Shown here: positions 4,592 through 63,037 of the stretch, piece after piece
Layout of the letters: each line of letters begins with the position of its first letter
Numbering within the stretch: position 1 is the first letter of the stretch
Assembly: GCA_965246995.1 (NCBI GenBank)
Contig: OZ252008.1
Location: 562,323 to 626,322, forward strand
Length of the DNA: 64,000 nucleotides
Direction: 5' to 3'
Source: Vicinamibacterales bacterium
GTDB taxonomy: Bacteria > Acidobacteriota > Vicinamibacteria > Vicinamibacterales > UBA8438
Notes under the pieces: model-generated
The model's database searches: none
What the model saw: only the letters and a program-made list of their open reading frames with translations
Told to the model about the DNA's origin: nothing
Position numbers and translations under genes: made by a program

Positions 4592-4749
4592 GAGTCCGTG
4601 GTGAAACCCCGGGTAGCACCGAGAGCGGCGAGGCGCTCGCCTGACAAGGCGCGACGAGGAAGCATATTGGCCATATGAGACCGAGGAGCAACGCCGTTCA
4701 GGCGGGATGCATCGCCGCTCGAATGTAGCGGGGGTTTCACCACGGGCTC
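4592..4749 (-). mobile_element. MITE-like palindromic element, copy B (short form, 158 bp, inverted orientation)
   Basis: Same family as copy A. Termini are GAGTCCGTGGTGAAACCCC ... GGGGGTTTCACCACGGGCTC. It is flanked by the direct repeat CTGG (4588-4591) and CTGG (4750-4753). Confidence 0.85.
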
Positions 4750-4808: not shown

Positions 4809-5351
4809 ATGGAAAGGCTCTTGGTGGCGGCACTGTTGCTGCGCTTGATTCGGGCGCAGAAGGAAGAAGGAAGCCCGGGCGGCGAGACCCATATTCAGAA
4901 GGCTGTCTATTTTCTGCAGGAGTTGATGCAAGTCCCGTTGAATTTTCGGTTCATCTTGTACCGATACGGACCGTATTCCTTTGAGCTTAGAGATGCGCTC
5001 ATGAGCTTGAGGGCGGATGGGTTGGTTCGACTTGAACCACAACGTTCGGTGGGAGCCAAGATCGTTCCGACGGAGCGCGGTGTGCGGTTCTTGGACTCGC
5101 GGCAAGCGGCGCTTGGGAAGTGGATGGCTAGAATCGAGTTCGTAGCAAAGGCGTTGGGAAGGAATGGCGCGCTCGGCTTGGAACGGCTTGGGACAGCGTA
5201 TTTCGTCACGCACAGGGCGACGATCGAAGCGACGGTTCAGGATCGAGTGAAGGAAGTGAGACGGCGTAAACTGCATATCACGGCGAACGACGCGAAGGAA
5301 GCGGTGGAGTGGGCGGACCGCATTACAGAGCAAGCGGCGACGGTCCGATAA
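4809..5351 (+). CDS. YwgA-like / winged-helix-type small protein, putative partner of the HD phosphohydrolase
   Basis: 180 aa. HIQKAVYFLQELMQVPLNFRFILYRYGPYSFELRDALMSLRADGLVRLE resembles the YwgA pattern (LQK.vY...F.f..YGPYS.EL) as I remember it. A GGAGGG ribosome-binding site lies 8 nt upstream. The 3' end overlaps gltX by 43 nt. Confidence 0.5.
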   Translation: MERLLVAALLLRLIRAQKEEGSPGGETHIQKAVYFLQELMQVPLNFRFILYRYGPYSFELRDALMSLRADGLVRLEPQRSVGAKIVPTERGVRFLDSRQAALGKWMARIEFVAKALGRNGALGLERLGTAYFVTHRATIEATVQDRVKEVRRRKLHITANDAKEAVEWADRITEQAATVR

Positions 5352-16984: not shown

Positions 16985-17178
16985 GAGCCCGTGGTGAAAC
17001 CCCTGCTACATTCGAGCGGCGATGCATCCCGCCTGAACGGCGTTGCTCCTCGGACTGCGTTCAGTCCGCGGACTGCGTCAGTCCGCGGTCGCAATATGGC
17101 CAATATGCTCCCTCGTCGCGCCTTGTCAGCCGGGCGCCTCACCGCTCTCGGTGCGACGCGGGGTTTCACCACGGGCTC
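16985..17178 (+). mobile_element. MITE-like palindromic element, copy C (long form, 194 bp, two central hairpin modules)
   Basis: It has the same termini as copy A. The centre carries GGACTGCGTTCAGTCC and GGACTGCGTCAGTCC. Flanks are CCAG (16981-16984) and CTAG (17179-17182). It lies between trkA and trkH. Confidence 0.85.
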
Positions 17179-24895: not shown

Positions 24896-25048
24896 GCTGG
24901 TGCGGCGTCCAAGTCCGCCGGACTCTCGGTCCGGCAACCTCTGACCGCTCGATGCACGGGTCCGAGGCCGCACATTCGACGTGCAGTTTCAGGGCGAGTT
25001 GGCCGGGGTTGCGGTAGCATAGCGTCCAGGCTTCGCGAAGACGCAGGA

Positions 25049-26776
25049 ATGGTGATCATGTCCAGAAAGACACTGGCGGTGGCGGCGATGCTGGGAATCA
25101 CGCTGATCGGCTCCGACTTCCAAACGCAGGCGCAAACGCAGGATGCCCTCGGCCACGGCTACAGCCGCCCGGCCCGCAGCGTCCATGGCAGCCGTTCCGA
25201 GGTGATCGCCCCGAACGGTATGGTCGCGGCGAGCCAGCCGCTTGCCGCGCAGGTGGGCCTCGAGGTCCTCAAGTCGGGCGGCAACGCGATCGATGCCGCC
25301 GTCGCGGTCAACGCGATGCTCGGCCTGGTCGAGCCGCACATGAACGGGGTTGGCGGCGACCTCTTCGCCATCCTCTGGCACGCCGAGACCGAGCAGCTCT
25401 ATGCGCTGAACGGCACCGGGCGCGCGCCGTACGAGATCAGCCGCGAGACGCTGGTCAGCCAGGGCTACGAACGGATGCCGGGCGCCGGTCCGCTCACCTG
25501 GACGGTTCCGGGCGCGGTCGATGCCTGGTCGCAACTGCTCGAACGCTTCGGCACGATGGAGCTGGCCGACCTGCTCCAGCCCGCCATCGACTACGCGCGC
25601 AACGGCTTCCCGGTCAGCGAGATCATTCAGGGGCAGTGGTCCGGGTCGATGCCGTCCCTCCGCGAGTGGCCGACATCAGCCGCGACGTACCTGCCGAACG
25701 GCAGGCCGCCGGCTGTGGGCGAGCTGTTCAAGAACCCGCAGCTCGCGGACACCTACGAACAGGTCGCGCGCGGCGGCCGCGATGCGTTCTACCGCGGCGA
25801 GATCGCGCGGAAGATAGTCGCGTTCAGTGAAGCGAACGGCGGCTACTTCACGATGGCCGACTTCGAGGATCACACGTCCGAGTGGGTCGAGCCGGTCGGC
25901 ACCAACTACCGCGGCTACGACATCTGGGAGGTACCGCCCAACAGCTCCGGGATCCTCGCACTGATGATCCTGAACATCCTGGAGGGCTATGACATCGCGT
26001 CGCTCGGCCACAACAGCGCGGATGCGCTGCACCTCTTCGCGGAGGCGAAGAAGCTGGTCTGGGCGGATCGCAACACCTACGTCGCCGACGCGAACGCCAA
26101 CACGCTGCCGACGCAGCCGCTCATCTCGAAGCCGTATGCGGAATCGCGCCGCAAGATGATCGACAAGGGACGCGCCGCGACCGAGGTGACCCCCGGCAAC
26201 CCGTTCGAGCACAGCGACACCGTCTATCTGACCGTGGTCGACAAGGACCGGAACGCCATCTCGTTCATCGAGAGCATCTTCGGCGGTTTCGGCTCGAAGA
26301 TCGTGCCGGGCGACCTCGGCTTCGCGCTCCAGAACCGGGGTTCAGGCTTCTCCCTCGAGGAGGGGCACCTCAATTCGCTCGAGCCGCACAAGCGCTCGCT
26401 CCACACCAACATGCCGGGCTTCGTCACCAAGGACGGCAAGCCGTTCATGCCGTTCGGCGTGATGGGCGGTCCGATGCAGCCGCAGGGTCACTGGCAGATC
26501 CTGTCGAACATCATCGACCACGGCATGAACATCCAGGAAGCGGGCGACGCCGCGCGCGTGCGCCACAGCCCGAGCAGCTATCCGGGGGGCACGCTGGCCG
26601 TCGAGCCGGGCATCTCGGACGAAGTCATCGCGGAGCTCCGCCGCCGCGGCCACCATGTCGAACGGCAGGGTGGGGGCGGCATGGGGGGCTACCAGGCGAT
26701 CATGATCCACCCCGAAACCGGCATGCTCCACGGCGGGACCGATCCTCGCAAGGACGGTCTGGTGGCGGGGTACTAG
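25049..26776 (+). CDS. ggt: Gamma-glutamyltranspeptidase
   Basis: It has a signal peptide and GMVAASQPLAAQVGLEVLKSGGNAIDAAVA. The autoprocessing region reads HSDTVYLTVVDKDRNAISFIESIFGGFGS. The stop TAG (26774-26776) lies in the CTAG flank of MITE copy D. Confidence 0.9.
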   Translation: MVIMSRKTLAVAAMLGITLIGSDFQTQAQTQDALGHGYSRPARSVHGSRSEVIAPNGMVAASQPLAAQVGLEVLKSGGNAIDAAVAVNAMLGLVEPHMNGVGGDLFAILWHAETEQLYALNGTGRAPYEISRETLVSQGYERMPGAGPLTWTVPGAVDAWSQLLERFGTMELADLLQPAIDYARNGFPVSEIIQGQWSGSMPSLREWPTSAATYLPNGRPPAVGELFKNPQLADTYEQVARGGRDAFYRGEIARKIVAFSEANGGYFTMADFEDHTSEWVEPVGTNYRGYDIWEVPPNSSGILALMILNILEGYDIASLGHNSADALHLFAEAKKLVWADRNTYVADANANTLPTQPLISKPYAESRRKMIDKGRAATEVTPGNPFEHSDTVYLTVVDKDRNAISFIESIFGGFGSKIVPGDLGFALQNRGSGFSLEEGHLNSLEPHKRSLHTNMPGFVTKDGKPFMPFGVMGGPMQPQGHWQILSNIIDHGMNIQEAGDAARVRHSPSSYPGGTLAVEPGISDEVIAELRRRGHHVERQGGGGMGGYQAIMIHPETGMLHGGTDPRKDGLVAGY

Positions 26777-26952
26777 GAGCCCGTGGTGAAACCCCCGCTA
26801 CATTCGAGCGGCGATGCATCCCGCCTGAACGGCGTTGCTCCTCGGACTGTGGCAGTCCGCGGTCGTCATATGGCCAATATGCTCCCTCGTCGCGCCTTGT
26901 CAGGCGAGCGCCTCGCCGCTCTCGGTGCTACGCGGGGTTTCACCACGGACTC
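26777..26952 (+). mobile_element. MITE-like palindromic element, copy D (medium form, 176 bp, one central hairpin module)
   Basis: It has the same termini as the other copies and a central GGACTGTGGCAGTCC. It is flanked by CTAG (26773-26776) and CTAG (26953-26956). Confidence 0.85.
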
Positions 26953-28158
26953 CTAGTTCCACGGAGGGGTCCTCCCCAATTCCGCTGGCGCGAGGGACAA
27001 GTTGGGAAGAGCCGCGAGACGGGCCACGTCCGTGACCGCCAGGACTGTGATGTTGCGGTCCGCCGGGTAGGTGCTGTTCGTTGGACAGACGACGAACAGG
27101 TGATCGAGCCCGAGTGTGGCGGTAACGTTGCGCAACTGGGCGGTCACCCTGGGCGCCTCGCTGAACTTCACCTCGAATCCGATACGGCGGCCGCGGTGTA
27201 ACACGAGCAGGTCCAGCTCGCCGCCCCCGTGGGCCGCCCAGAACCACGCCTGAACGGGATCCAGGGCCGACAGGATCTGTTCGATCACGAAGCCTTCCCA
27301 GGATGGCCCGACACGCGGGTGGCTGAAGAGCTCGGCGTCGTTCCGGATCCCGAGCAACGCGTGCAGCAGACCGGTGTCGCGGAGGTAGACCTTCGGCGCC
27401 TTGACCTGGCGCTTGGCGACGTTCTCGTACCAGGGCTGGAGCTGGCGGACCATGAAGGCTCCGGTCAGCAGGTCCAGATAACCGCGGACCGTCTTGTCAG
27501 AGGCGCTGATCGAGCGGCCCAGGCTGGAGGCGTTCCAGGTCTGGCCGTGCCAGTGCGCGAGCATCGTCCAGAACCGCTCGAGGGCGGCGGCCCGGATGGT
27601 GATGCCCAATTGCGGGATGTCGCGTTCCAGGAACGTGCGTATGAACGCGCGGCGCCACGAGTGGCCGTCGTCATCCGTCGGCGCGAGATACGACCTCGGA
27701 AGTCCGCCGCGCAGCCAGAGCGTCCGCCAGGCGTCGGCGCCGGTCTCCGAGAGATCGAAGCCGGTCATATCGATGAACTCGACCCGGCCGGCGAGGGACT
27801 CGGATACAACCCGCACGATCCCGGGTGACGCGCTGCCCAGGATCAGGAAGCGCGTTCTCGCGCCGGGGCGGTCTGCCAGCACCCGCAGGACGTTGAAGAG
27901 GTGCGGCATCCGCTGGATTTCGTCCACCACAACCAAGCCGTCGAGCGCCCCGAGGACCAGCTCGGGATTGGCGATTCGGCGAACGTCCTGATTGGATTCC
28001 AGGTCAAGAAAGGTGGCGTTGCGCGTTGCCGCGAACTGCCGGGCGAGCGTCGTCTTGCCGCACTGCCGGGGTCCCAGCAGCGAGGTGACAGGCGCGCGGC
28101 GGGTTGCGGCGGCGAGTCGATCCAGGTAGTCGGAGCGGGCAACCAGGGTGTCTGACAC
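26953..28158 (-). CDS. AAA+ ATPase with a DUF4143-type C-terminal domain (COG1373-like)
   Basis: The Walker A motif is LLGPRQCGKTTLARQF and the Walker B region is LVVVDEIQ. 401 aa with a GTG start. The stop is the reverse TAG of the MITE flank. Confidence 0.75.
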   Translation of the reverse strand: MSDTLVARSDYLDRLAAATRRAPVTSLLGPRQCGKTTLARQFAATRNATFLDLESNQDVRRIANPELVLGALDGLVVVDEIQRMPHLFNVLRVLADRPGARTRFLILGSASPGIVRVVSESLAGRVEFIDMTGFDLSETGADAWRTLWLRGGLPRSYLAPTDDDGHSWRRAFIRTFLERDIPQLGITIRAAALERFWTMLAHWHGQTWNASSLGRSISASDKTVRGYLDLLTGAFMVRQLQPWYENVAKRQVKAPKVYLRDTGLLHALLGIRNDAELFSHPRVGPSWEGFVIEQILSALDPVQAWFWAAHGGGELDLLVLHRGRRIGFEVKFSEAPRVTAQLRNVTATLGLDHLFVVCPTNSTYPADRNITVLAVTDVARLAALPNLSLAPAELGRTPPWN

Positions 28159-28244
28159 GCTGATATTTCACTTGAACACTCGGATACTAGATCCGAATAT
28201 TCAATATATTGACACGCTGGCGCGGCGTTTGCCGCGATCTGTCG

Positions 28245-36929: not shown

Positions 36930-38375
<1,446 letters not shown>

Positions 38376-39973
38376 GAGTTTGCGCCGCAGAAAAGGGATG
38401 CGACAATCGCAGACCATCCGACGACGAAAGGACCTGATGTCGACGACGTTCCGCCGCTACGCACCGGACCAGACCCTGTTGCTGCCAGCCGACATGCGGG
38501 AGTGGCTGCCGGAAGGCCACTTGGCGCATCACGTGAGCGACCTGGTGGACGGTTTGGATCTGACGGCGTTCTACGCGCCGTATGAGGGAGACGGACGGCG
38601 CAACGCGCCGTATGCGCCGCGGATGCTGGTGAAGGTGCTGATCTACGCGTATGCGACGGGGGTGTTTTCGTCGCGGGGGATCGCGAAGAAGCTGGAAGAG
38701 GACGTGGCGTTCCGGGTGCTGGCGGCGGGCAACTTTCCGCAACACCGGACGGTGTGCGAGTTCCGTCGGCGGCACCTTGGGGACTTCAAGAAACTGTTTG
38801 TGGAGGTGGTGCGTCTGGCGCAAGAGCTGGGGCTGGCGAGCTTCGGGAAGTTGTCGATAGACGGGACGAAGGTGCGGGCGAACGCGAGCAAGCGCAAGGC
38901 GATGAGCTACGGTCGGATGCAGGAGGAGGAGCGTCGCTTGGTCGGCGAGATTGACGCGCTGCTGGCGTCGGCGGACGACGCTGACGCGGCCGAGGATGCG
39001 CGGTTGGGGGCGGAGGTGCGCGGCGACGAGCTGCCGACGGAGTTGCGGCGGCGGGAGGATCGTCTGGCGGCGATCCGGGCGGCGAAGGCGCGTCTGGAGG
39101 CGGCGCAGCGGGCGGCGGACGACGCGCGCGGGCGGCAGCCGGGCGAGGGTCGGAACCCGCAGGGCGGTCGGCCGTACAAGCGGGGGTATGGCGAGCCGGA
39201 CGAGAAGGCGCAGAGCAACTTCACGGATCCGGACAGCGGGATCATGAAGACGAGCAACGAAGGGTTCCAGCAGTGCTACAACGCGCAGGTGGCGGTGGAT
39301 GGTGACCACCAGTTGGTGGTGGCGACCGACGTGACGGCGAACGCGAGTGACCAGGGCGGGTTGCCGGCGCTGCTCGACGCGGTGTCGGAGACGTTCGACG
39401 CGCAGCCGGAGACGGTGCTGGCCGACGCCGGGTATTGCAACGAGCGGGACTTGGTGGACCTGGAGACGCGGGGCGTCAACGGGTATGTGGCGCCGGGACG
39501 AGAGGGTAAGACGGCGGCGACCAGCGACCCCAAGAAGCATCCGGCGACGAGTCGCATGTCGGAGAAACTGGCGACGCGGGCGGGCCGGGCGGCGTATGCG
39601 GAACGCAAGTGGCTGTCGGAGGCCCCGCACGGCTGGATCAAGCACGTGCTGGGATTCCGGCGCTTCAGCCTGCGGGGACTCGCCACGGCGGGCGGCGAGT
39701 GGGACTTGGTGTGCCTGGCGTTGAACGTCAAACGCCTTCAGCCCCTGATGGGGATGTGAAACGCGAGGTATGAAGCCGGCAACGGCCGCGCAGCGGTGCG
39801 AATCGTGGCCGCTGGCGAGCCCCGGGGCGCGTCGGAGCCGATTTTGCCGACCGTTTCGCCGGCCGCCGAGAATCGACCTCGCCCGCTGACCGGCGAAGTC
39901 GCCCCGACGCGGTGCGTCAGGTTGTGGGCCGACGGCCAACTATCGTCCGGCGAATCTCCTGCGGCGCAGACTC
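38376..39973 (+). mobile_element. IS1182-family insertion sequence, copy 1 (1598 bp)
   Basis: The inverted termini are GAGTTTGCGCCGCAG and CTGCGGCGCAGACTC. It is flanked by CTAG (38372-38375) and CTAG (39974-39977) and contains a single transposase ORF. Confidence 0.85.
38437..39759 (+). CDS. IS1182-family DDE transposase
   Basis: MSTTFRRYAPDQTLLLPADMREWLPEGHLAHHV...RNAPYAPRMLVKVLIYAYATGVFSSRGIAKKLEEDVAFRVLAAGNFPQHRTVCEFRRRH...LSIDGTKVRANAS is the typical IS1182 N-terminal region and DDE region. Confidence 0.88.
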   Translation: MSTTFRRYAPDQTLLLPADMREWLPEGHLAHHVSDLVDGLDLTAFYAPYEGDGRRNAPYAPRMLVKVLIYAYATGVFSSRGIAKKLEEDVAFRVLAAGNFPQHRTVCEFRRRHLGDFKKLFVEVVRLAQELGLASFGKLSIDGTKVRANASKRKAMSYGRMQEEERRLVGEIDALLASADDADAAEDARLGAEVRGDELPTELRRREDRLAAIRAAKARLEAAQRAADDARGRQPGEGRNPQGGRPYKRGYGEPDEKAQSNFTDPDSGIMKTSNEGFQQCYNAQVAVDGDHQLVVATDVTANASDQGGLPALLDAVSETFDAQPETVLADAGYCNERDLVDLETRGVNGYVAPGREGKTAATSDPKKHPATSRMSEKLATRAGRAAYAERKWLSEAPHGWIKHVLGFRRFSLRGLATAGGEWDLVCLALNVKRLQPLMGM

Positions 39974-39977
39974 CTAG

Positions 39978-41681
39978 CCCGGATAATTCAGGAAGGGTCC
40001 GATTACGGTAGAAAAACAAGAGCCTCCGCGTGGTATAAATGGCTTATTCACAGACATTTACCCACCACGGAGGCCCTTGCGTGACGATCAATACGATACC
40101 ACAGACTGTCCTCTTTCCGGATCTCTTCGACAAGCCCCTCGTCGCGACGTTCGACCGCCGGCACGCGAGTTCCGATGGCGGCGCCGTCCTGCTCAAGGCG
40201 GCGGAGCGCGTGTATGGGTTGGTGGCGGGTTTCGCCCGGTGTCTGGTGGACCGGCGGGAGCCCGGGAAGATCCGGCACACGCTGGCGGAGTTGCTCGGCC
40301 AGCGGATCTTCGGCATTGCCTGCGGCCATCCCGATGGCAACGACGCCGACCACCTCGCCGACGACCCGATCCACAAGCTGTTGCTCGGGCGGGACCCGGT
40401 GGCGGGGGAGGCGTTGGCCTCGCAGCCGACGATCTCGCGGTTCGAGAACGGCGTTGGCCGGTCCGCCCTCTACGAGCTGGCGCGCGAGCTGGCGATGCGG
40501 GTCATCGAGCGGCATCAGCGCCGGCTGGACGGGCGGGCGCGGCGCATCACGATCGACCTGGATCCGACCGACGACGCGACGCACGGCGCCCAGCAGCTCA
40601 CCTTCTTCAACGGGCACTACGATCGCTGGTGCTACCTGCCGTTGCTGGCGTTTCTGACCTTCGACAAGGAACGCGAACAGTATCTGTGCGCGGCGGTGCT
40701 GCGGCCCGGCAATGTGCCGGCCCCCCGCGGGACCGTGGGCGTGTTGTGCCGGCTGCTGCCCCTGCTGCGGCAGGCCTTTCCCCAGGCGCGGTTTCTCGTC
40801 CGGCTCGACGGGGGCTTTGCGACACCGGAGATCTTCGACTTCCTGGATGCCGAGCCGCGGCTCGACTACGTGGTGGCCATGGCCAAGAACGCCGTGTTGC
40901 AGCGCCACGCCGAGCCCGCCCTGCTCGTGGCGCAGGCCCAGAGCGCGGCCAGCGGCCAGACCGCGCAGGTCTACGCCGACACCCGCTATCGGGCCCGCAC
41001 GTGGGACCGCGACCGCCGCGTCGTGATCAAGGCCGAGGTCGTCCGGCTCGGCGACCGCGCCCCGCGCGACAACCCGCGCTTCGTCGTGACCAATCTGCGC
41101 CAGACGCCGCGCTTCCTCTATGAACGGATCTACTGCGCCCGCGGCGACATCGAGAACCGCATCAAGGAACTGCTCGATGGCCTGCAGATCGACCGCACGA
41201 GCTGCTGTCGCTTCTGGGCCAATCAACTGCGCGTGCTGCTCACCGCCGCCGCCTACGTGCTGATGCAAGAACTCCGGCTGCGCGCGGCGCGCACCGCCTG
41301 TGCCCGCGCCCAGGTGACGTGGCTGCGCGACCGGCTCCTCAAATTGGGGGCGCACGTCGTCGGCTCGGTCCGCCGCGTGGTCCTGCACCTGCCGACCGCC
41401 ACGCCGGACCTCCACGCCTGGCGGCACATCGCGCTGGCACTCGGCGCCCGCCCCGGATAGACCCCAGACAGCGCCCGTCAGCCGCGCATACACGCATCCC
41501 AACGGCGAACCGAGCCCGCCCATGGCGAAGCCGTCCCTGGACGGCCCCATACCCAGGCCTTCCGCACCGGCAATCAGTGTCTATCCCGCCGGCGCTCGAC
41601 GAAAACGACGCCCGGCGGGCCGTGTGCGCGACGATCACACCGTCCGAGGGGCCATCTTGGAGCCTTCAGGAATAGTCCGGG
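39978..41681 (+). mobile_element. IS1380-family insertion sequence, copy 1 (1704 bp)
   Basis: The termini are imperfectly inverted (CCCGGATAATTCAGGAAGG and CCTTCAGGAATAGTCCGGG). It is flanked by CTAG (39974-39977) and CTAG (41682-41685). Confidence 0.8.
40039..41460 (+). CDS. IS1380-family DDE transposase
   Basis: ATFDRRHASSDGGAVLLKAAERVYGLVAGFARCL...IFGIACGHPDGNDADHLADDP...LASQPTISRFENGV...ITIDLDPTDD is the IS1380 pattern. Confidence 0.88.
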   Translation: MAYSQTFTHHGGPCVTINTIPQTVLFPDLFDKPLVATFDRRHASSDGGAVLLKAAERVYGLVAGFARCLVDRREPGKIRHTLAELLGQRIFGIACGHPDGNDADHLADDPIHKLLLGRDPVAGEALASQPTISRFENGVGRSALYELARELAMRVIERHQRRLDGRARRITIDLDPTDDATHGAQQLTFFNGHYDRWCYLPLLAFLTFDKEREQYLCAAVLRPGNVPAPRGTVGVLCRLLPLLRQAFPQARFLVRLDGGFATPEIFDFLDAEPRLDYVVAMAKNAVLQRHAEPALLVAQAQSAASGQTAQVYADTRYRARTWDRDRRVVIKAEVVRLGDRAPRDNPRFVVTNLRQTPRFLYERIYCARGDIENRIKELLDGLQIDRTSCCRFWANQLRVLLTAAAYVLMQELRLRAARTACARAQVTWLRDRLLKLGAHVVGSVRRVVLHLPTATPDLHAWRHIALALGARPG

Positions 41682-41685
41682 CTAG

Positions 41686-41861
41686 GAGTCCGTGGTGAAA
41701 CCCCGCGTAGCACCGAGAGCGGCGAGGCGCTCGCCTGACAAGGCGCGACGAGGGAGCATATTGGCCATATGACGACCGCGGACTGCCACAGTCCGAGGAG
41801 CAACGCCGTTCAGGCGGGATGCATCGCCGCTCGAATGTAGCAGGGGCTTCGCCACGGGCTC
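41686..41861 (-). mobile_element. MITE-like palindromic element, copy E (medium form, 176 bp, inverted orientation)
   Basis: It belongs to the same family, with a central GGACTGCCACAGTCC. Flanks are CTAG (41682-41685) and CTAA (41862-41865). Confidence 0.85.
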
Positions 41862-41887
41862 CTAAGCCGCTGGCCGCGCGAGGCCGG

Positions 41888-42892
41888 TCACGCGCCTGGG
41901 GGGGCGATCGCTTCTGCGGCCGGGGAATCGGGCCAGCGCGGCTCCGGTTTGGCCACGTAGGTGGCGTGGGCGAGCTGGGACTGGAAGTAGGAGATCTGCG
42001 CCGCGTAGGCGGCCAGCCTGGCGAAGACGCGCGCGACGATATAGAGCTGGCCGATGACGAAAGCTCCCCAGACGGCATTGCCGCTCGCGCCGGCGCCCGG
42101 GGCCACGACCGCGTAGGCGGTGAAGATCAGCCCGAGGAGCGCGCCGTTCAATAGCCACAATCCCGCCACACCGACGACATGGCGTCGCATGAACCGCAGT
42201 GTAGCGAGGAGCGCACCGATCATGCTGTGGCGATCTTCCACGACGGCGCGGACGCGCGTGTAGTCGAATACCAGGTCGACGGCGGCGAGCAGCTCGGCGA
42301 AGATCAGGTAGAACGCAAACAGAGTCCATGCCGACGTGCGCTCCACCGTCACGTCGCGGACAAGCGTTTCGTAGACGTCTCCGAACAACCAGGGGTGCAG
42401 CCAGAGGAAGAGCGCCCCGTACACGGCCGCAGCGATGATGCCGAGTCGCGCGAAACGCCCGGCAAACCCGCCGCACGCCGAGAAGAACGCGGCGCTCCGG
42501 ATCGGCCGCTGCCGCGCCAGGCGATCGATCACGCCGCCGGCGAGAAAGATCCAGGCGAGGAACCAGACGATAGCGGGCAGCGTCGCCGGCCCTGGCGCGC
42601 TGCCGTTGAGCAGCCCGGAGAGGTTGAAGAGGACTCCCGCAAAGCCGATCACCCAGGGGCCGAACAAACCCTCGATGGCGTTCGCGTCGGCGCGGAACTC
42701 GATCCACCACATCTCGTCCCATCCCTCCGCCACGGCAGCGGCGGTGGTGCTCGGTCCGAGATCGGAGGCAATGCCGAGGAACAGCAGCAGCGCCAACGGC
42801 AGCACCGTGACGAGCGTCAGCGCCCACACCCCCAGCACCAGCGTCGGCGCCGCGGCGGTCCGGCGGAGCCCGTCGAGGAAGGCGGCGATCAT
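41888..42892 (-). CDS. Polytopic membrane protein of unknown function, translationally coupled to the M1 peptidase
   Basis: From the ATG at 42892 it reads MIAAFLDGLRR..., with about 8 hydrophobic segments. The ATGA overlaps the stop of the upstream peptidase gene. The track ORF start at 43108 is too long. Confidence 0.55.
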   Translation of the reverse strand: MIAAFLDGLRRTAAAPTLVLGVWALTLVTVLPLALLLFLGIASDLGPSTTAAAVAEGWDEMWWIEFRADANAIEGLFGPWVIGFAGVLFNLSGLLNGSAPGPATLPAIVWFLAWIFLAGGVIDRLARQRPIRSAAFFSACGGFAGRFARLGIIAAAVYGALFLWLHPWLFGDVYETLVRDVTVERTSAWTLFAFYLIFAELLAAVDLVFDYTRVRAVVEDRHSMIGALLATLRFMRRHVVGVAGLWLLNGALLGLIFTAYAVVAPGAGASGNAVWGAFVIGQLYIVARVFARLAAYAAQISYFQSQLAHATYVAKPEPRWPDSPAAEAIAPPGA

Positions 42893-44913
42893 GCGAGGAA
42901 ACCAACCGTCAGGAGGAGGTCCTGCAGCCAGATGATCGAGGCGAGCGTCCACTTGGTCGCCGCTTCGGCGGCGCGGGACCGCGTGGTCCGGCTGTTGTTC
43001 GTGAAGTCGGTGTCCAGCAACAGGACACGCTCCGGATCGACGGTTGCGGTCACCGCGCGCGACGGGCCGACGAAGCGGTAGTACGTCCACTGCGCGCGGC
43101 CGTCCCACCGCCGGCGTTCGGTCGTCCCGTCCGCGAACTCGACGAGGACGTCGACGGGGAAGATCCCGTCACCGTAGCGGCGGACCGCGACGAGCGATTC
43201 GAACCGGTTCGAGGTTCCTCCGGCGGCGGGGGAAACGCCGTCCGCCGCGCTGCCCGCTTCGTCCCGGTACTGGCCATCGTCGAACCATCCGCGTCCCGAT
43301 GCGTTGCGGCTGCCGAGTTGTGCGATGCCGTAGTCGAAGACGGCGGAGCTGCCGTGCACCTGATCGAAGAACCAGCCCAGGTCTTCGCCGGCCGCCGTGT
43401 TCATCGCGGTGAAGAAGTCGTCCGGCTTGGGATGACCGAACTTCCACTGCCGATAGAACGCCGACATGCCGCGCTGCATCACGTCCCAGCCGAGATGCCG
43501 TTCGAGCGTGTGAAGGTAGAGGGATGACTTGTTGTAGGTAATCGCGCCGCCCGAGCCCGGCCAGTAGCGGTAGGTCGGCGTGGCCTGCACGTCCGAGCGC
43601 GCGACCGCCCGGTACCCCGCGATCCGATCGCCATGAATGACGCGATCCCACGGAATGTCCGGTTGCGGCCACGGCACGAAGCCACCGAAGAAGCGGAGCT
43701 CGCGGACGAAGGGGAACGCCTCTTCCATCGCCCGCGCGGTGGCGTAGGTATTCAGCCCCTCGTCGAGCCACGAGTGCTCCATCTCGTTGTTGCCGACGCC
43801 GCTCTGGAAGAACATGTGTCCCGCTTCGTGGACCGTCACCTCCTCCGGGCCGTCGGTCGAGGCGGGGGACAGCCAGCGCGTGCCGGCGGTGATGAACATC
43901 GGGTATTCCATCCCGCCCGAGCGGCTCTGCCACGCCGGGTCCACGATGGTGATGTGGTCCCATGGGTACGCGCCGAACCACTCGCCGTAGAGGCGGAGCG
44001 TCTCGCGCGTCGCGCGGAGGTGCCGCTCTTCCTGGCCGGCATGCTCCGGCTGCAGCAACAGGCGCATGTCGACCGGCGGCAATGACGGGTGCTCGAACCG
44101 GTCTTCCACGACCAGGAAGTCCGGGCTCGTGGTCCAGGCGAACTCGTGAACATCCTCGGCGTGGAAGTGCCGTGTGGCGGTCCCGTCGCCGTTGTCGGTC
44201 ACTTCCTGCTCGCGTCCGGTGGCGCCCACGACCCAGTCGGCGGGCGCCGTGATCCGGACGTCATAGACGCCGTAGTCGGAAAAGAACTCGGTCCCGGTGT
44301 GGAACTGGTGGCAGTTCCAGCCCGCCGCCTCGAGGACACCGATCTTCGGGAACCAGTGGGAGAGGAAGAAGTAGTCGCCGATTGTCCCGGTCCGCGCGAA
44401 GGGGCGCGGGATGCGGCTGATCCACTCGATCTCGACCTCGATCGTCTCCCCGGGCGCGACCGGTCTCGGGAGCGGCACGCGCAGGACGGTCCGGTCGTCG
44501 GGGTTGCCGTCGTCAGGCGCGATGAACGCGGCGTCGCGGGTCAGGTCAACGGCGGCGCTGCCGCTGGCGCCATCCCCCGGCAGGCGAATGCTGCTGACAT
44601 CGATCCGGCCCCAGTCCTCCTCCGGGCGGCCGTGCAGCGCCGCACCCCGGCCGAGGAGGCGCTCGCGCATCCAGGTGGAGCGGGTGTTGCGCCAGGCGTT
44701 GTAGTAGAGATGGAACTGGAGTTCCGACGTCGGGTTCGGCGAGATATTCCGCCAGGTCAGCGTCTCGCGTCCGGTCAGCGTCCGCGCCGACGGGTCAAGC
44801 GTGACGTCGATGTCGTAGTTGGCGTTTCGCGGGGACGTCGGCGCCTGCGCCCCGCCCGGCGCGATGGCCAGGCCCAGGAGGAGGGCGATGGCCACGGCAT
44901 GTTTCGTACGCAT
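42889..44913 (-). CDS. Secreted M1-family (gluzincin) metallopeptidase
   Basis: From the ATG at 44913 it reads MRTKHAVAIALLLGLAIAPGGAQA (signal). HEAGHMFFQSGVGNNEMEHSWLDEGLNTY carries the HExxH-(18)-E motif. Confidence 0.8.
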   Translation of the reverse strand: MRTKHAVAIALLLGLAIAPGGAQAPTSPRNANYDIDVTLDPSARTLTGRETLTWRNISPNPTSELQFHLYYNAWRNTRSTWMRERLLGRGAALHGRPEEDWGRIDVSSIRLPGDGASGSAAVDLTRDAAFIAPDDGNPDDRTVLRVPLPRPVAPGETIEVEIEWISRIPRPFARTGTIGDYFFLSHWFPKIGVLEAAGWNCHQFHTGTEFFSDYGVYDVRITAPADWVVGATGREQEVTDNGDGTATRHFHAEDVHEFAWTTSPDFLVVEDRFEHPSLPPVDMRLLLQPEHAGQEERHLRATRETLRLYGEWFGAYPWDHITIVDPAWQSRSGGMEYPMFITAGTRWLSPASTDGPEEVTVHEAGHMFFQSGVGNNEMEHSWLDEGLNTYATARAMEEAFPFVRELRFFGGFVPWPQPDIPWDRVIHGDRIAGYRAVARSDVQATPTYRYWPGSGGAITYNKSSLYLHTLERHLGWDVMQRGMSAFYRQWKFGHPKPDDFFTAMNTAAGEDLGWFFDQVHGSSAVFDYGIAQLGSRNASGRGWFDDGQYRDEAGSAADGVSPAAGGTSNRFESLVAVRRYGDGIFPVDVLVEFADGTTERRRWDGRAQWTYYRFVGPSRAVTATVDPERVLLLDTDFTNNSRTTRSRAAEAATKWTLASIIWLQDLLLTVGFLA

Positions 44914-57526: not shown

Positions 57527-58399
57527 ATGCTGGCAGCAGAGCGGCATCGTAAGCGGGGGCTCTTCAAGAGCGAAGACCGACCGGCGGAGCTGGGGTGGCG
57601 GTTCCGCCTGCACGAGATCATCTTCGAAGCGGACACGCCCGCCGGCAAGCTCTTCGACGTCGCACTGCTGCTTGCCATCATCGCCAGCGTGGCGGTGGTG
57701 ATGCTCGAGAGCCTGCCGAACGTGCGGCCGCAGTTCGCCTCCCTGCTCCTCCAGATCGAGTGGGTGTTCACGCTCCTGTTCACCGTCGAGTACGCCGCGC
57801 GCATCGCGGCGGTGCGGTATCCGTCGCGCTACATCTTCAGTTTCTTCGGGTTGATTGACCTGATGGCGATCATCCCCACCTGGATCAGCCTGGTACTGCC
57901 CGGGGGCCAGGCGCTGATCGCGATCCGCGTGGTCCGGCTGATCCGCGTATTCCGTGTCCTGAAGCTCGGGCACTACCTGATGGGCGCGGAAGAGCTGACG
58001 GATGCGTTGCGCGAGAGCCGGCCGAGGATAGTCGTCTTTATGGCCGCAGTCGCGTCGATCGCGGTGGTGATGGGCGCGTTGATCTACCTGGTCGAAGGGG
58101 AGGAAAACGGCTTCACGTCGATCCCGCGGGGGGTCTACTGGGCCATCGTGACGATAACGACGGTCGGTTACGGCGACATCTCGCCGCAGACCACCGTCGG
58201 GCAGTTCGCCGCCGTGATCCTGATGCTGATTGGCTACGGGATCATCGCGGTGCCTACCGGCATCTTTTCGGCCGCCATCGCGCGGCGGGGGACGGACCCG
58301 ATATCGACGCAGGCGTGCCTGGAATGCAGCCGGGAGGGTCACGACCCGGACGCCGAGTTCTGCAAGCACTGCGGCGCCGACCTGCACCCGGGGGACTAG
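57527..58399 (+). CDS. Voltage-gated K+ channel (6-TM Kv-type) with a C-terminal zinc-ribbon tail
   Basis: The S4 segment is IRVVRLIRVFRVLKLGH and the selectivity filter is TTVGYGD. The tail is CLECSREGHDPDAEFCKHCGADL (CxxC...CxxC). The stop TAG (58397-58399) lies in the CTAG flank of the IS. Confidence 0.85.
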   Translation: MLAAERHRKRGLFKSEDRPAELGWRFRLHEIIFEADTPAGKLFDVALLLAIIASVAVVMLESLPNVRPQFASLLLQIEWVFTLLFTVEYAARIAAVRYPSRYIFSFFGLIDLMAIIPTWISLVLPGGQALIAIRVVRLIRVFRVLKLGHYLMGAEELTDALRESRPRIVVFMAAVASIAVVMGALIYLVEGEENGFTSIPRGVYWAIVTITTVGYGDISPQTTVGQFAAVILMLIGYGIIAVPTGIFSAAIARRGTDPISTQACLECSREGHDPDAEFCKHCGADLHPGD

Positions 58400-60018
58400 C
58401 AGCCTGTCGGACTTAGGCGCGGCAAACGCGCGTGGAAGCGACTTGGCACCTGTTTGAACGACGCCCTGTGTCTCTGTGCCGGGAGGGCCGCTTCGACCGA
58501 AACGGGGACTGTATCCTGGCCATCGGTCGCTGACGGCGCCTGGAGGTCTTTCTGACGCCTCTGGTGGGTCGCGAACACGCCGAGTTCCGCCCCGTATAGC
58601 CCCGTCATGCCAGCCTGAGGTTGTGCACGCGTCGGCAGTTATACGCCAGCGTTACCAAGGCCCATTCGCCCTCCACCTTCTCAAGACCCCGCAGCAGAAA
58701 CTGCCGGAAGCCCATCGCCTGCTTCACGATCCCGAACACCGGCTCCACCGTCTGCTGGCGCAAACGGTAATGCGCCCGGTGCTCCGGCAGTGCCATCTTC
58801 TCCTGCATCGACTTGATCCAGTCCGCCTGCGGCTCCTTCGCCAGCTGCTCCGGCGGCTCCGGTCGGAAGTCGTGCCGGCGCCGTTGGCCTTCCGCCCCCG
58901 TCGCCACCAACACCTCCACACCGCGACCTGCCAGTTGCGACACCTCGCTGCCCGTCGCGTAGCCACTGTCCGCCAGTACCCGATCCGCCGCGCCCACCGC
59001 CGTCGGTATCGCGTCCACGTCCGCCACCAACTCGTTGCGGTCGCTCGCGCACACGCTCACCCGCGACCCCAACACCAACTGACTGCCGTCGGCATCCACC
59101 ACCGCCTGCGCGTTGTATGCCTGGCGGTACTCATGGCGCCGGCTCTTGCGCATCAGCGCACTGTCCGCATCCGTCAGGTTGATCTGCGCCTTCGCCTCCG
59201 GCGCGTCCCTCGGCGGCGTGATGTGCCGACCCTTGCGCGATCCCGCACGCCGCTCCCGCGCCGCCACCGTGCGCTCGTACTCCGCCCGCTCCGCGTCCGC
59301 ACGCGCCTGCGCACGCCGTTCCAACTCCGCGCACGCACGGTCCAGCTTCGCCCGTAGCGTCTCGCGCCGCGACAACTCCTCCGGCAGACCCTGTGGGTCC
59401 GGCACGTCGTCCGTGTCGGCGTGCTCCGCCTGATCCAACAACCCCTCGATCTCGCCTCGCAACTGCTCGCGCAACGCCCCCGCACGGTCGTAGCGGATGC
59501 TGTTGCGCTTGTTCGCGTTCGCGTCCACCTTCGTCCCGTCCACGCTCACCGTCCCAACACGCAGCAACTGCAGCTCCTTCGCCAGCAGCAGTACCTGCAG
59601 GAACGCCTCCGCTACCGCTTCGAAGTTGCTGCGCCGGAACGTGCAGATCGTGTCGTGGTCCGGATGACAGTTCGCCGCCACGTACCGAACGCCAATGTCC
59701 CGATACGTCGCCCGCTCGATCCGACGCGAGCCGAAGATCCCGTTCGCGTAGCAGTACACCAGCAACGCCAGCATCATCCGCGGGTGATACTGCGCCGATC
59801 CGGTGCCCCGTTCGTTCACCTGGAACCGCTCCAGCGGCACCCGTTCCACCGCCTCCACCACGAAGTGCGCCAGATCGTCCTCAGGCAGCCAATCGCGCAG
59901 GTCCGGCGGCAGCAGATACAACTGCGACTGGTGCCGCTGTACAAAATTCGGCATCTACTTCTACCCCCTCAACTCGACAAGCCCCATTATAAAACCCGGG
60001 CCTAAGTCCGACAGGCTG
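58400..60018 (-). mobile_element. IS1182-family insertion sequence, copy 2 (1619 bp, a different element from copy 1)
   Basis: It has perfect 19-bp inverted termini, CAGCCTGTCGGACTTAGGC ... GCCTAAGTCCGACAGGCTG. It is flanked by CTAG (58396-58399) and CTAG (60019-60022). Confidence 0.88.
58605..59954 (-). CDS. IS1182-family DDE transposase
   Basis: MPNFVQRHQSQLYLLPPDLRDWLPEDDLAHFV...YHPRMMLALLVYCYANGIFGSRRIERATYRDIGVRYVAANCHPDHDTICTFRR...VSVDGTKVDANAN. Confidence 0.88.
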   Translation of the reverse strand: MPNFVQRHQSQLYLLPPDLRDWLPEDDLAHFVVEAVERVPLERFQVNERGTGSAQYHPRMMLALLVYCYANGIFGSRRIERATYRDIGVRYVAANCHPDHDTICTFRRSNFEAVAEAFLQVLLLAKELQLLRVGTVSVDGTKVDANANKRNSIRYDRAGALREQLRGEIEGLLDQAEHADTDDVPDPQGLPEELSRRETLRAKLDRACAELERRAQARADAERAEYERTVAARERRAGSRKGRHITPPRDAPEAKAQINLTDADSALMRKSRRHEYRQAYNAQAVVDADGSQLVLGSRVSVCASDRNELVADVDAIPTAVGAADRVLADSGYATGSEVSQLAGRGVEVLVATGAEGQRRRHDFRPEPPEQLAKEPQADWIKSMQEKMALPEHRAHYRLRQQTVEPVFGIVKQAMGFRQFLLRGLEKVEGEWALVTLAYNCRRVHNLRLA

Positions 60019-60022
60019 CTAG

Positions 60023-61733
60023 CCCGGATTTCTCACCGTTGTAGATACAAGAGACTGCCTGTGATGGCGTAAAGTGTTGTGGCCGCAATACTTTCACACC
60101 AGACACGGAGGCAGCCTCTTGTCCACACAGTGTACGCCAATCCAACTTGAATTTCCGCGTGTCGGCCGCCGCCGACTGGTGGCGCGTTTCGGTGGCGGGC
60201 GGATTACCTCCAACGCGGGCGCGCTATTACTGCAGGCCGTGGAAGCGTGCACGCAGGTGTGCCGGCGTGCGGCGCGGTGCTTCCAGGATCACCGGGACGG
60301 GCGGTGGGTGGAGCACACGGTCGAGGAGTTAGTGACGCAGCGGGTGTTTGGCCTGGCGCTGGGCTACGAAGACCTGAACGACCACGACACGCTGCGGCGC
60401 GACGCGCTATTGGCGGCGGTGGTGGGCAAGGCGGACCCGACCGGGGCATCCCGGGTGCGGGCGGCGGACCGCGGGTCGGCCCTGGCGGGCAAGAGCACGT
60501 TGAACCGGCTGGAGTTGGCGGGGCCTGACGCGGAGACGGACCGCTACAAGAAGGTGAGCTATGACCAGGCGGCGCTCGATGCGCTGCTGGTCGACCTGTT
60601 CATCGAGGCCCACCCGCAGCCGCCCGTGCGCATCGTGCTCGATGTCGATGCCACCGACGACCCGCTGCACGGCCAACAGGAAGGGCGCTTTTTCCACGGC
60701 TACTACCGGCACTACTGCTATCTGCCGCTGTATGTCTTCTGCGGCGCGCACGTGCTGTGTGCACGGCTCCGGCCGGCGAACATCGATGCGGCGGCCGGCG
60801 TGGTCGATGAACTGGCGTGGATCGTGGACCGCGTGCGGCAGGCGTGGCCGACGGTGGCCATTCTGGTGCGCGGCGACTCGGGCTTCTGCCGGGACGCGTT
60901 GCTGAACTGGTGCGAGGCGCACCAGGTGGACTATCTCATCGGGGTCGCCAAGAACGACCGCCTCAAGGCGCAACTGGCGCCGGCGATGGTGCAGGCCCAG
61001 GCCCAGTGCCAGGCGAGCGGTCAGCCGGCCCGGGTGTTCGCCGACTTCGGCTATCGCACGCGCAAGAGCTGGAGCCGGGAGCGGCGGGTCGTCGGCAAGG
61101 CCGAGCACCTGCCGGCCGGGCCGAATCCGCGCTTCGTGGTGACCTCGCTGCCGGCAGACCGCGTCCCGGCCCAGCCGCTGTATGAGGACCTGTATTGCGC
61201 CCGCGGCGATATGGAGAACCGCATCAAGGAGCAGCAACTGGCCTTGTTTGCCGACCGCACCAGCAGTGCCACCCTGCGGGCCAACCAGTTGCGCCTCTAC
61301 TGGTCGACCTTGGCCTACGTCCTGTTGCACGCGCTCCGCAGCCGGGCTTTGGCAGGCACCCGGCTCGCCCGCGCCCAATGCGACACCTTACGCCTCCGGC
61401 TGCTCAAGGTCGGCGCCCATATCCGTGTCACCGCACGCTGCGTCTGGGTCGCGTTGACCGACTATCTGCCTGACGCCGACCTGTTCATCCTCGCCGCCAA
61501 CCGCTTGCACCAAGCGCGCGCACCCGCCTGACGCCCCAGTCCAACGCCAGACCACGTCCGCAGCTACCCGGTGGACTACCCCGGGGCCGGCCCGCTGCGC
61601 CCGACACGCCGCCGTCGGTGTCGCAACCGCCCCGTCCGCCGCCTTCCAACCTCTCCCGCGCGTCCGTGCTGGACCTCCTGCGCCGTAAACTCACCGCTTC
61701 AGCCTCGCGCCGGGTGGCTGTGAGAAATCCGGG
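60023..61733 (+). mobile_element. IS1380-family insertion sequence, copy 2 (1711 bp)
   Basis: The inverted termini are CCCGGATTTCTCAC ... GTGAGAAATCCGGG. It is flanked by CTAG (60019-60022) and CTAG (61734-61737). Confidence 0.85.
60074..61531 (+). CDS. IS1380-family DDE transposase
   Basis: ARFGGGRITSNAGALLLQAVE...VFGLALGYEDLNDHDTLRRD...LAGKSTLNRLE...IVLDVDATDDPLHG. Confidence 0.88.
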   Translation: MLWPQYFHTRHGGSLLSTQCTPIQLEFPRVGRRRLVARFGGGRITSNAGALLLQAVEACTQVCRRAARCFQDHRDGRWVEHTVEELVTQRVFGLALGYEDLNDHDTLRRDALLAAVVGKADPTGASRVRAADRGSALAGKSTLNRLELAGPDAETDRYKKVSYDQAALDALLVDLFIEAHPQPPVRIVLDVDATDDPLHGQQEGRFFHGYYRHYCYLPLYVFCGAHVLCARLRPANIDAAAGVVDELAWIVDRVRQAWPTVAILVRGDSGFCRDALLNWCEAHQVDYLIGVAKNDRLKAQLAPAMVQAQAQCQASGQPARVFADFGYRTRKSWSRERRVVGKAEHLPAGPNPRFVVTSLPADRVPAQPLYEDLYCARGDMENRIKEQQLALFADRTSSATLRANQLRLYWSTLAYVLLHALRSRALAGTRLARAQCDTLRLRLLKVGAHIRVTARCVWVALTDYLPDADLFILAANRLHQARAPA

Positions 61734-61737
61734 CTAG

Positions 61738-61896
61738 GAGCCCGTGGTGAAACCCCCGCTACATTCGAGCGGCGATGCATCCCGCCTGAACGGCGTTGCT
61801 CCTCGGTCTCATACGGGCCAATATGCTCCCTCGTCGCGCCTTGTCAGTCGGGCGCCTCACCGCTCTCGGTGCGACGCGGGGTTTCACCACGGGCTC
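61738..61896 (+). mobile_element. MITE-like palindromic element, copy F (short form, 159 bp)
   Basis: It belongs to the same family. Flanks are CTAG (61734-61737) and CTAA (61897-61900). Confidence 0.85.
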
Positions 61897-61915
61897 CTAA
61901 GGAGGATAGCCGCGA

Positions 61916-63037
61916 CTACTGCTTCACCCGGAGGTCGCGGTCCAGTTCGACGACGGAAGCCCCCAGAGGCGAGAGACGACGGGCATACCGCGCATCGGTG
62001 ATGATGACGCGGTAGCCGTCTGGAGTTTCTTCCACCGCGTAGGCCGGGTAGCGGATCCAGGCGACGAGGCCCTGCACGTGCGGCGCGGTGCGTGCGGCGG
62101 CGATGATGGCGTCGGCGCGCGGACCGCGCGGCTGCCGATCGATGGCCCGCGCCGCCACACGGGGTTCGGCGCCCCGCAGCCAATCGAGATCGAGGAAGTG
62201 GTAATGCTCCGCGTCGGCGACGACGATGTCACGGCGGAACGGATTGCCCGGCGTAGGGGACGCCATCACTTCGATCGGCGTGTCGTCCCCCTGCGCGGCC
62301 AGCCACGCGGCTACCTGTTGCTCGGCGAGGCGCGAGGCAGCGACCATCACGACGATGTAGACCGCGATGGCGGAGAGGCAGATTGTGGCCAGGCGCGGCA
62401 AGGCCAGACGCCATTGTCCGCTCGCGCGCAGCCAGACGATCGCGGCGACGCCGACGCACCAGAGCAGCCGCGTTGCGGCCGGCGCTCCCTCGAAGCCGGT
62501 GACGAGTGACGTCGCGGCGACCCCCAGCACGACCCACGCCGCGAGACTGGCGCGTGACGTGCTGCGCGCGAGGACGACGGAGGTTCCCGCGAGCAGCCAG
62601 ACCCACGGGTCGACCACGAACAGCGCATCGCCGTGGTACCACGTTCCCGAGAACGGCATCAGGAAGCGCACGCCGTACGTGTTGAGCCAGTCCAGAGCCG
62701 GGTGCGTCCAGACGGCGATGGCGCAGACCGCGACGAGCGGAAGGGTTCGAACGGGCGGGCTGTTCTGCCGGACCGGTCCGGAGAACCACCGGCGCGCGCG
62801 ATCCGCGAGAATCAGCAGTCCGGCCAGTGCGAGGGGGAGAACGACCATCGCCAGCAGGCCGTGCGTCCAGCCGCGGCGAAAGCCGAGCGAGACGTCGCGC
62901 GTCATGAAGAGGGTGATGGCGTCGAGGTCCGGGGCGTTCGCGCCCAGCAGCAACGCTGGCGTGGCGAGTGCGGTGGCGCGGCGGAGCCGCGTCTCCGCCA
63001 GTGTCACGCCGATGAGGGTATGGGCGATTGGGTCCAT
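61916..63037 (-). CDS. Membrane-bound metal-dependent hydrolase (YdjM/DUF457-like) with a C-terminal extra-membrane domain
   Basis: MDPIAHTLIGVTLAE...GANAPDLD...RGWTHGLL are YdjM-type His/Asp motifs, followed by several TM helices. 373 aa. Confidence 0.7.
   Translation of the reverse strand: MDPIAHTLIGVTLAETRLRRATALATPALLLGANAPDLDAITLFMTRDVSLGFRRGWTHGLLAMVVLPLALAGLLILADRARRWFSGPVRQNSPPVRTLPLVAVCAIAVWTHPALDWLNTYGVRFLMPFSGTWYHGDALFVVDPWVWLLAGTSVVLARSTSRASLAAWVVLGVAATSLVTGFEGAPAATRLLWCVGVAAIVWLRASGQWRLALPRLATICLSAIAVYIVVMVAASRLAEQQVAAWLAAQGDDTPIEVMASPTPGNPFRRDIVVADAEHYHFLDLDWLRGAEPRVAARAIDRQPRGPRADAIIAAARTAPHVQGLVAWIRYPAYAVEETPDGYRVIITDARYARRLSPLGASVVELDRDLRVKQ

Follow-up and report, generated by a model that had tools for sequence, protein, structure and literature searches.

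Probable stepwise assembly of two insertion-sequence pile-ups on CTAA stop sites in a Vicinamibacterales genome

We analysed a 64 000-nucleotide stretch of DNA from a Vicinamibacterales bacterium (Acidobacteriota; GenBank assembly GCA_965246995.1, contig OZ252008.1, positions 562,323 to 626,322), referred to below as the window. It contains two arrays in which an insertion sequence (IS) of the IS1182 family (A1, A2), an IS of the IS1380 family (B1, B2) and a miniature inverted-repeat transposable element (MITE; M1, M2) stand end to end. Array 1 (38372–41865) follows ppk2 and reads CTAG / A1 / CTAG / B1 / CTAG / M1 / CTAA; array 2 (58396–61900) follows an ion-channel gene and reads CTAG / A2 / CTAG / B2 / CTAG / M2 / CTAA. 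The features are listed in table 1. An earlier note on this DNA had given the coordinates and the order of array 1, and every one of them is correct; the sequence also bears out its statement that neighbours have a single CTAG in common at each junction, and the terminal inverted repeats of every element stop exactly at the tetranucleotides. The elements had been described as joined head to tail, which is right for the end-to-end joining but not for a uniform orientation: A2 has its transposase on the minus strand and A1 on the plus strand, and the orientation of M2 is opposite to that of M1. Both arrays lie between convergent genes, the ends of which were originally 15–22 bp apart (22 bp between the stops of ppk2 and of the gene at 41888–43108). 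Nothing obvious is disrupted, and both upstream genes retain a stop codon (TAA to TAG).

Table 1. Features of the two arrays, other copies of the MITE in the window and small related palindromes in comparison loci (numbered with L).
Feature	Position	Strand	Remarks
ppk2 (polyphosphate kinase 2)	36930–38375	+	stop TAG here (38373–38375); TAA in empty-site strains
CTAG junction 1	38372–38375		between ppk2 end and A1; contains the ppk2 TAG stop
A1, IS1182-family IS	38376–39973	+	1598 bp; transposase 38437–39759, 440 aa
CTAG junction 2	39974–39977		common to A1 and B1
B1, IS1380-family IS	39978–41681	+	1704 bp; inverted repeats begin CCCGGA
CTAG junction 3	41682–41685		between B1 and M1
M1, MITE	41686–41861		176 bp, without open reading frame; terminal inverted repeats ~25 bp (GAGYCCGTGGTGAAACCCC)
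CTAA	41862–41865		intact right half of the original array 1 target; CTAA in the empty alleles (L118–L123)
Convergent gene downstream of array 1	41888–43108	-	membrane protein, without Pfam match
Ion-channel gene	57527–58399	+	Pfam Ion_trans; stop originally TAA, now TAG within CTAG 58396–58399
A2, IS1182-family IS	58400–60018	-	1619 bp; transposase 58605–59954, minus strand
CTAG	60019–60022		common to A2 and B2
B2, IS1380-family IS	60023–61733	+	1711 bp; inverted repeats CCCGGATTTCTCAC; transposase 60119–61531
CTAG	61734–61737		between B2 and M2; already present in the MITE-only allele
M2, MITE	61738–61896		159 bp; orientation opposite to M1; 100% identical to the copy in L256–L259
CTAA	61897–61900		right half of the original array 2 target
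Convergent gene downstream of array 2	61916–63037	-	YdjM family
Solitary MITE	2181–2338		CTAG both sides; right CTAG gives the TAG stop of minus-strand gene 2339–3223
Solitary MITE	4592–4749		CTGG both sides
Solitary MITE	16985–17178		194 bp; CCAG left, CTAG right
Solitary MITE	26777–26952		CTAG both sides; exactly between two convergent genes
Tiny A1-like palindromes	L053 5854–5901 and 6121–6168; L028 4714–4743; L014 2913–2960; many loci of L127–L246		

All of the elements fall in known families. The transposases of A1 and A2 score 364.2 and 304.5 bits with the NCBIfam IS1182 model NF033551 (cut-off 270) and carry the Pfam domains DUF772, DDE_Tnp_1 and DDE_Tnp_1_6. Both elements have the organization of IS1182 members, with a single transposase reading frame, inverted repeats of 15–23 bp (about 15 bp in A1, GAGTTTGCGCCGCAG / GAGTCTGCGCCGCAG; 23 bp in A2, CAGCCTGTCGGACTTAGGC) and a length within about 1.3–1.95 kb. 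B1 and B2 reach 364.2 and 385 bits with the IS1380 model NF033539 (cut-off 180), and 420 bits (DDE_Tnp_1_4) and 490 bits with Pfam PF13701. As in other IS1380 elements, the repeats begin with CC (CCCGGA ends) and direct target repeats of 4–5 bp are formed, here 4 bp in sister copies. The longest reading frame of B1 begins at 40039; a transposase at 40081–41460, 459 aa, has the length of its homologues. Searches with tblastn using the four transposases gave no further copies in the window, and an Rfam scan of the whole window, MITE included, gave no match. Protein look-ups were without match for B1 from its ATG start, the exact A2 protein, the gene downstream of array 1 and ppk2 as a 481-aa protein.

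The two arrays contain the same three types in the same order, as the earlier note had pointed out, in the form of different sequences. Pairwise alignment distinguishes both pairs clearly: A1 and A2 share 38% and B1 and B2 40% amino-acid identity, and at the DNA level the identity is about 66% over partial alignments only. These low identities and the opposite orientations are incompatible with a segmental duplication; within each array, too, all three elements differ from one another.

Sister strains were found in public assemblies through the neighbouring proteins; their flanking DNA is 99.1–99.9% identical to the window, and all comparison sequences are metagenome assemblies. Array 1 is absent from six contigs originating from six samples (L118–L123), in which the ppk2 orthologue is a 481-aa PF03976 PPK2 protein and the empty site reads gcgcagCTAAgccgctgg (with longer flanks, gaagcgcagCTAAgccgctgg). 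The empty site of array 2 is present in three contigs (L115–L117) as gggggaCTAAggagg (with longer flanks, cccgggggaCTAAggaggatagcc). The original target at both sites is thus CTAA, overlapping a TAA stop codon. The earlier note had proposed a search for intermediate states, and one was found for array 2. Four contigs (L256–L259), each from a different sample and two of them 5.12 and 3.37 Mb long, carry the MITE only, identical to M2 of the window, in the sequence gggggaCTAG[M2]CTAAggagg (with longer flanks, cccgggggaCTAG[M2]CTAAggaggatagcc). Three allelic states of array 2 are therefore seen: empty, MITE only and, in the window, full. The MITE-only allele shows directly that in array 2 the MITE came first and made the CTAG, and that both ISs arrived later. 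From the same CTAG...CTAA asymmetry we infer that a MITE was also the founder of array 1.

The creation of CTAG from CTAA follows from the way in which the MITE duplicates its target. The window has six copies, and a scan of representative genomes gave more than 70 in other Vicinamibacterales assemblies, about 70 of them complete; copies are 158–194 bp long, with inverted repeats of about 22–25 bp, and fold as a long hairpin (z = -5.9). Among the approximately 70 copies, CTAG is found on both sides in 38. Deviating pairs (TTAG/CTAG, CTAG/CTAA, GTAG/CTAA, CTAG/CTAT) are changed at the outer base; the last base of the left flank is G and the first base of the right flank is C. The pairs TTAG/TTAG and CTAA/CTAA do not occur among these copies. 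Such a pattern would result from an element with the full form G-GAGYCC...GGRCTC-C that duplicates the central TA and nothing else. Comparison of the filled and empty array 2 sites confirms the rule drawn from the flank statistics: the net gain is 163 bp, corresponding to the TA duplication, G, 159 bp and C. With its own terminal G and C, M1 extends over 41685–41862, between TA at 41683–41684 and TA at 41863–41864, so that the G of CTAG junction 3 would be the terminal base of the MITE. Since the MITE duplicates only TA at an original CTAA, the CTAA at the right end of the arrays is explained.

The IS1380 element behaves differently. Ten loci carry copies 94% identical to B1 at the DNA level, representing nine distinct sites; their flanks are TTAA/TTAA at four, CTAG/CTAG at three, CTAA/CTAA at one and CTAG/CTAA at one. 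Since copies of one element vary in their inner flanking bases, these bases are derived from the target, and the IS1380 element makes a genuine 4-bp duplication of YTAR (Y, pyrimidine; R, purine). The IS1182-type elements are close to CTAG-specific, with CTAG on both sides at 22 of 23 sites: 13 of 14 for relatives of A1 (86% DNA identity), the remaining one being TTAG/CTAG (L109), and nine of nine for relatives of A2 (70% amino-acid identity, in a host of lower G + C content). A metagenome scan for the A1 inverted repeat also gave flanks that are nearly all CTAG.

Taken together, these data are best explained if in each array three independent mobile elements piled up step by step on a single CTAA at the TAA stop of one gene of a convergent pair, a reading to which we assign a probability of about 85%. 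The MITE, in array 2 and presumably also in array 1, inserted at C|TA|A, duplicated TA and brought its tip G and C, giving CTA-G[MITE]C-TA-A; the insertion was then bordered by one CTAG and one CTAA, and the stop of the gene had changed from TAA to TAG. For array 1 the corresponding intermediate would read gcgcagCTAG[M1]CTAAgccgctgg. The IS1380 element would then enter the CTAG made by the MITE and duplicate all four bases, and the IS1182 element would enter a CTAG available at the time; the two ISs may have arrived in either order, each leaving one more CTAG behind. Because CTAG is offered only there, the ISs stack on the side away from CTAA, and the MITE consequently adjoins CTAA in both arrays. 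With the ISs confined to the CTAG side, the coincidence of 'same order' shrinks to the position of IS1182 outside IS1380, which has an approximately even chance per array. If IS1182 elements duplicate only TA, A1 could even predate the MITE in array 1.

The scarcity of the target in the window is relevant here. At a G + C content of 66.9%, CTAG occurs 25 times against 81 ± 9 expected, a threefold depletion, and for YTAR the count is 55 where 198 would be expected. Of the 25 CTAGs, six are array junctions, which, given the rarity of CTAG and YTAR, is not a chance pattern. As 11 of the 25 flank the ten elements, an element requiring CTAG stands a good chance of landing beside another element. 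Many of the remaining CTAGs lie inside genes or overlap stop codons. The pile-up would be driven by a motif common to different families, by the rarity of this motif in a 67% G + C genome and, presumably, by the persistence of harmless insertions beside an existing element between convergent genes: where a CTAG separates an element from the end of a gene, it could be hit without cost.

Several observations weigh against this scheme or parts of it. In a simulation with uniform choice of sites and self-seeding, two triple arrays among ten elements arise with a probability of 0.009 (44 YTAR sites) to 0.08 (20 CTAG sites), figures not to be over-read because the window was chosen after the fact; these low values suggest that target sharing is not the whole story and that an extra factor is involved. 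The simplest candidate for it is the survival of those insertions that fall at harmless sites, which would probably be required in addition. No intermediate allele was found for array 1, for which the ppk2 look-up gave no match, and the priority of the MITE there is made probable by the CTAG...CTAA asymmetry. One sister copy of B1 (L006 3894–5605) is flanked by CTAG on the left but by CTAA on the right; the other sister copies all have perfect 4-bp repeats, and the mismatch could be due to a point mutation, to recombination between copies or to a lost neighbour. The flanks of the IS1182 elements are nearly all the palindrome CTAG, in which 2-bp and 4-bp duplications look alike, and those that are informative point different ways (TTAG/CTAG in L109, CTAA/CTAG for a mini element in L237). 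Finally, two MITE copies, flanked by CTAT/CTAT (L072) and TCAA/TCAA (L043), do not fit a duplication of TA only.

Arrangements of similar type were found elsewhere. The contig L098 (1–5176) carries an IS630-like element, A1, a B1-like element, a MITE and A2, joined by single CTAGs; it is a 5-kb contig composed of repeats only, at 5x coverage. Its A1 is 100% identical to that of the window, its IS1380 element is 96% identical to B1, and its MITE is a different length variant, 84% identical to M1, so that this array was assembled separately. The right-hand junction is CTAG, as opposed to CTAA in array 1; if the locus were the same, A2 would also have to supply a terminal G. A further pile-up, in a different Vicinamibacterales assembly (L092 1–3822), consists of an inverted IS1380 element, CTAG, a MITE (822–979), CTAG, rearranged IS1380 fragments, CTAG, an IS1182/IS5-like element (2353–3818) and CTAG. 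In L099 and L107 an A1-type element adjoins an IS1380-type end.

That a pre-formed IS1182–IS1380–MITE composite was moved or duplicated as one block would account for the identical order of element types in both arrays and for the occurrence of A1, a B1-like element and a MITE in that order in L098, though with other ISs on both sides. We nevertheless consider this very improbable. The protein identities of 38% and 40% and the inverted A2 and M2 are hard to derive from one block, the L098 trio was put together separately, the outer ends of the arrays are not a matched pair of inverted repeats, and the MITE-only allele documents the stepwise assembly of array 2. No locus carrying an identical three-element block within one target duplication was seen. 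Slightly less remote, but still unlikely, is a recognition of the MITE terminus itself by the ISs, similar to homing to REP or BIME palindromes, to which one might attribute the IS1380-type ends adjoining a MITE in array 1, array 2, L098 and L092. None of the nine sister sites of B1 is beside a MITE, however; these copies sit in TTAA, CTAG and CTAA in unrelated contexts. None of the 23 IS1182-type sites adjoins this MITE either, both MITE orientations are used, and of the roughly 70 MITE copies in other genomes about six adjoin another element, just one of them an IS1380 end. It is the tetranucleotide motif, rather than the MITE itself, with which the ISs are associated.

We give hardly any credence to a scheme in which all three elements duplicate a 4-bp CTAG and the CTAA at the right end arose later by a G-to-A mutation. 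Most flanks are indeed CTAG on both sides, and the two aberrant MITE copies mentioned above have 4-bp direct repeats; against this, the empty alleles of both sites read CTAA and not CTAG, the MITE-only allele is already CTAG...CTAA, and deviations in MITE flanks elsewhere are at outer positions and never duplicated. The converse, duplication of TA only with G...C ends for all three elements, is ruled out for IS1380, since sister copies encoding an identical protein vary between TTAA, CTAA and CTAG, each present on both sides. It is equally hard to believe that the arrays are assembly artefacts, with repeats misjoined at short CTAG overlaps. The source is a metagenome-assembled genome, and L098 is short, repetitive and thinly covered. 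Yet every junction fits the logic of target duplication, the flanks agree with the empty and MITE-only alleles at every base, junctions of A1–B1 and B1–MITE type recur in the independent assembly of L098, and a 4-bp overlap is unable to mislead an assembler.

The stepwise pile-up on CTAA modifies the earlier account in some respects. Both conditions that it had named as refuting were examined, with outcomes in its favour. Target preference rather than duplication of a composite had been proposed, and this is upheld by the independence of the arrays, by their own empty-site alleles and by the sister copies at CTAG or YTAR. The idea that each newcomer inserts into the CTAG flank of a resident and duplicates it holds for IS1380, with its 4-bp YTAR duplication, but not for the MITE, which creates the first CTAG from CTAA and duplicates only TA. 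The site does seed itself; the gain is one CTAG per insertion, however, not two, and seeding is not a full account of two triple arrays. Of the associations suggested for other IS copies, that with CTAG is observed (with TTAA and CTAA in addition for B1-type copies) and one with the MITE as such is not.

The pile-up is what one would predict from a shared choice of target. What sets it apart is the stepwise series that was observed, together with the CTAG made by the MITE; it is a worked example of known transposon behaviour, without a new transposition mechanism. Array 2 represents a rare complete natural time series of the building of an IS cluster, and illustrates that a small non-coding element, through one base added at a stop site, can make the target that unrelated transposons prefer. 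Targeting of CTAG and CTAA directs elements to gene ends, where stops are kept and little harm is done. This helps to explain IS-dense spots in the genomes of uncultured soil Acidobacteriota, and gives annotation rules for these abundant elements (TA versus 4-bp duplication, YTAR target). A much broader reading, which we find rather doubtful, is that at least three lineages have converged on stop-overlapping CTAG/YTAR and that the MITE seeds CTAG pads, nucleating IS nests at gene ends across Vicinamibacterales and other high-G + C soil bacteria. A stronger version of this convergence would see in the recurrent IS1182–IS1380 abutment (arrays 1 and 2, L098, L099, L107 and L248) a real end preference or cooperation. 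If the convergence were true, element traffic could shape the number and location of CTAG and the use of stop codons.

Elements of the IS1380 family, such as ISEcp1 and IS1247, end in CC and are flanked by direct repeats of 4–5 bp. The elements studied here resemble them in their model match, their repeats beginning with CC and their 4-bp direct repeats; they differ in the YTAR preference (TTAA, CTAG or CTAA) of this clade, seen at nine sites. IS1397 and ISKpn1 insert into REP or BIME palindromes, and there too ISs stand beside small repeated elements and form clusters of mobile DNA; the shared feature here, in contrast, is a 4-bp boundary motif and not recognition of the repeat. IS630 is described as having 5'-CTAG-3' as its target, where it inserts at the TA and duplicates these 2 bp (Tenzen & Ohtsubo 1991, cited in PMC2170065; PMC2577343, table 1). 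Like IS630, our MITE prefers CTAG (it tolerates CTAA, TTAG and CTAT) and duplicates only TA, but its repeats match an element with DUF772 and DDE_Tnp_1 (the IS1182/IS5-like element of L092) and not with DDE_3. The IS5-type pair MITEPsy1/ISPsy2 of Pseudomonas syringae targets CTAG or YTAA with a 4-nt duplication (PMC3189936). It has in common with the present system the YTAR motif and a small non-autonomous derivative with the inverted repeats of a full-length IS; here, however, the 4-bp YTAR duplication belongs to the IS1380 element, and the MITE duplicates 2 bp. MITEPye1/ISPye18 of Paracoccus yeei is an IS1182-family case with 4-bp direct repeats (PMC11578231). A1 and A2 likewise pass the IS1182 model, small A1-like derivatives exist and the candidate parent of the MITE is IS1182-like; the difference is that the IS1182 copies described here are nearly all at CTAG. 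No CTAG or YTAR preference of IS1380 or IS1182 elements was found in the literature searched, which did not extend to the ISfinder pages and is weak evidence of novelty.

The sole full-length element found with MITE-like repeats (CAGCCCGTGGTGAAAG / CAGCCCGTGGCAGAAGG) is that of L092, 1466 bp long. Its 456-aa transposase, with DUF772 and DDE_Tnp_1 domains, scores best with the IS1182 model; the 156 bits that it reaches fall short of the cut-off (270), and we regard the element as a candidate parent of the MITE, nothing more. An IS630-type parent, suggested by the CTAG/TA behaviour, was considered but is not supported: L098 and L114 contain IS630-like elements, the ends of which are unrelated to those of the MITE, and no IS630-type element with the repeats of the MITE was found among the comparison loci.

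The solitary MITE at 26777–26952 lies between a gamma-glutamyltranspeptidase gene (24896–26776, plus strand) and a DUF4143 ATPase gene (26953–28167, minus strand). Its two CTAG flanks (26773–26956) are the TAG stops of both genes, the stops of which would have overlapped on one CTAG before the insertion. CTGG and CCAG flanks are common among MITE copies. One orthologous insertion (L030 2642–2800 and L039 1062–1220) differs between two genomes in one flanking dinucleotide, TG as against CA: in the same orientation, the flanks are CTGG/CCAG in one genome and CCAG/CCAG in the other.

Tiny palindromes with A1-like inverted repeats (GAGTCTGCGCCGYAGAA), 29–30 bp and about 48 bp long and flanked by CTAG, CCAG or CTGG, are widespread in Vicinamibacterales genomes and soil metagenomes, and several adjoin the MITE through a shared tetranucleotide. 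Another MITE, of about 239 bp (L248 3024–3266), has the inverted repeats of a B2-type IS1380 element (CCCGGATTTCTCACC); it is flanked by CTAG and adjoins an A2-type IS1182 element. The IS1380 lineage thus has its own miniature derivatives on the same target. In L110 (1819–5016) an A1-type element separates the Mu-transpos_C_2 half from the rve half of another IS's transposase gene, and IstB_IS21 genes adjoin. This copy appears to have entered an IS21-family element at a CTAG.

Four of the 14 CTAGs of the window that are not associated with elements are in a single gene (5270–6964), a paralogue of class I Glu/Gln tRNA synthetases located directly upstream of a second gene of tRNA synthetase type (6886–8655). 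This density of CTAG is unusual for the genome and may indicate a foreign origin. Immediately upstream of the DUF4143 gene, A + T-rich DNA contains a perfect palindrome centred on CTAG (cggataCTAGatccg; 28175–28200), which may serve as an operator or represent a target site that is still free.

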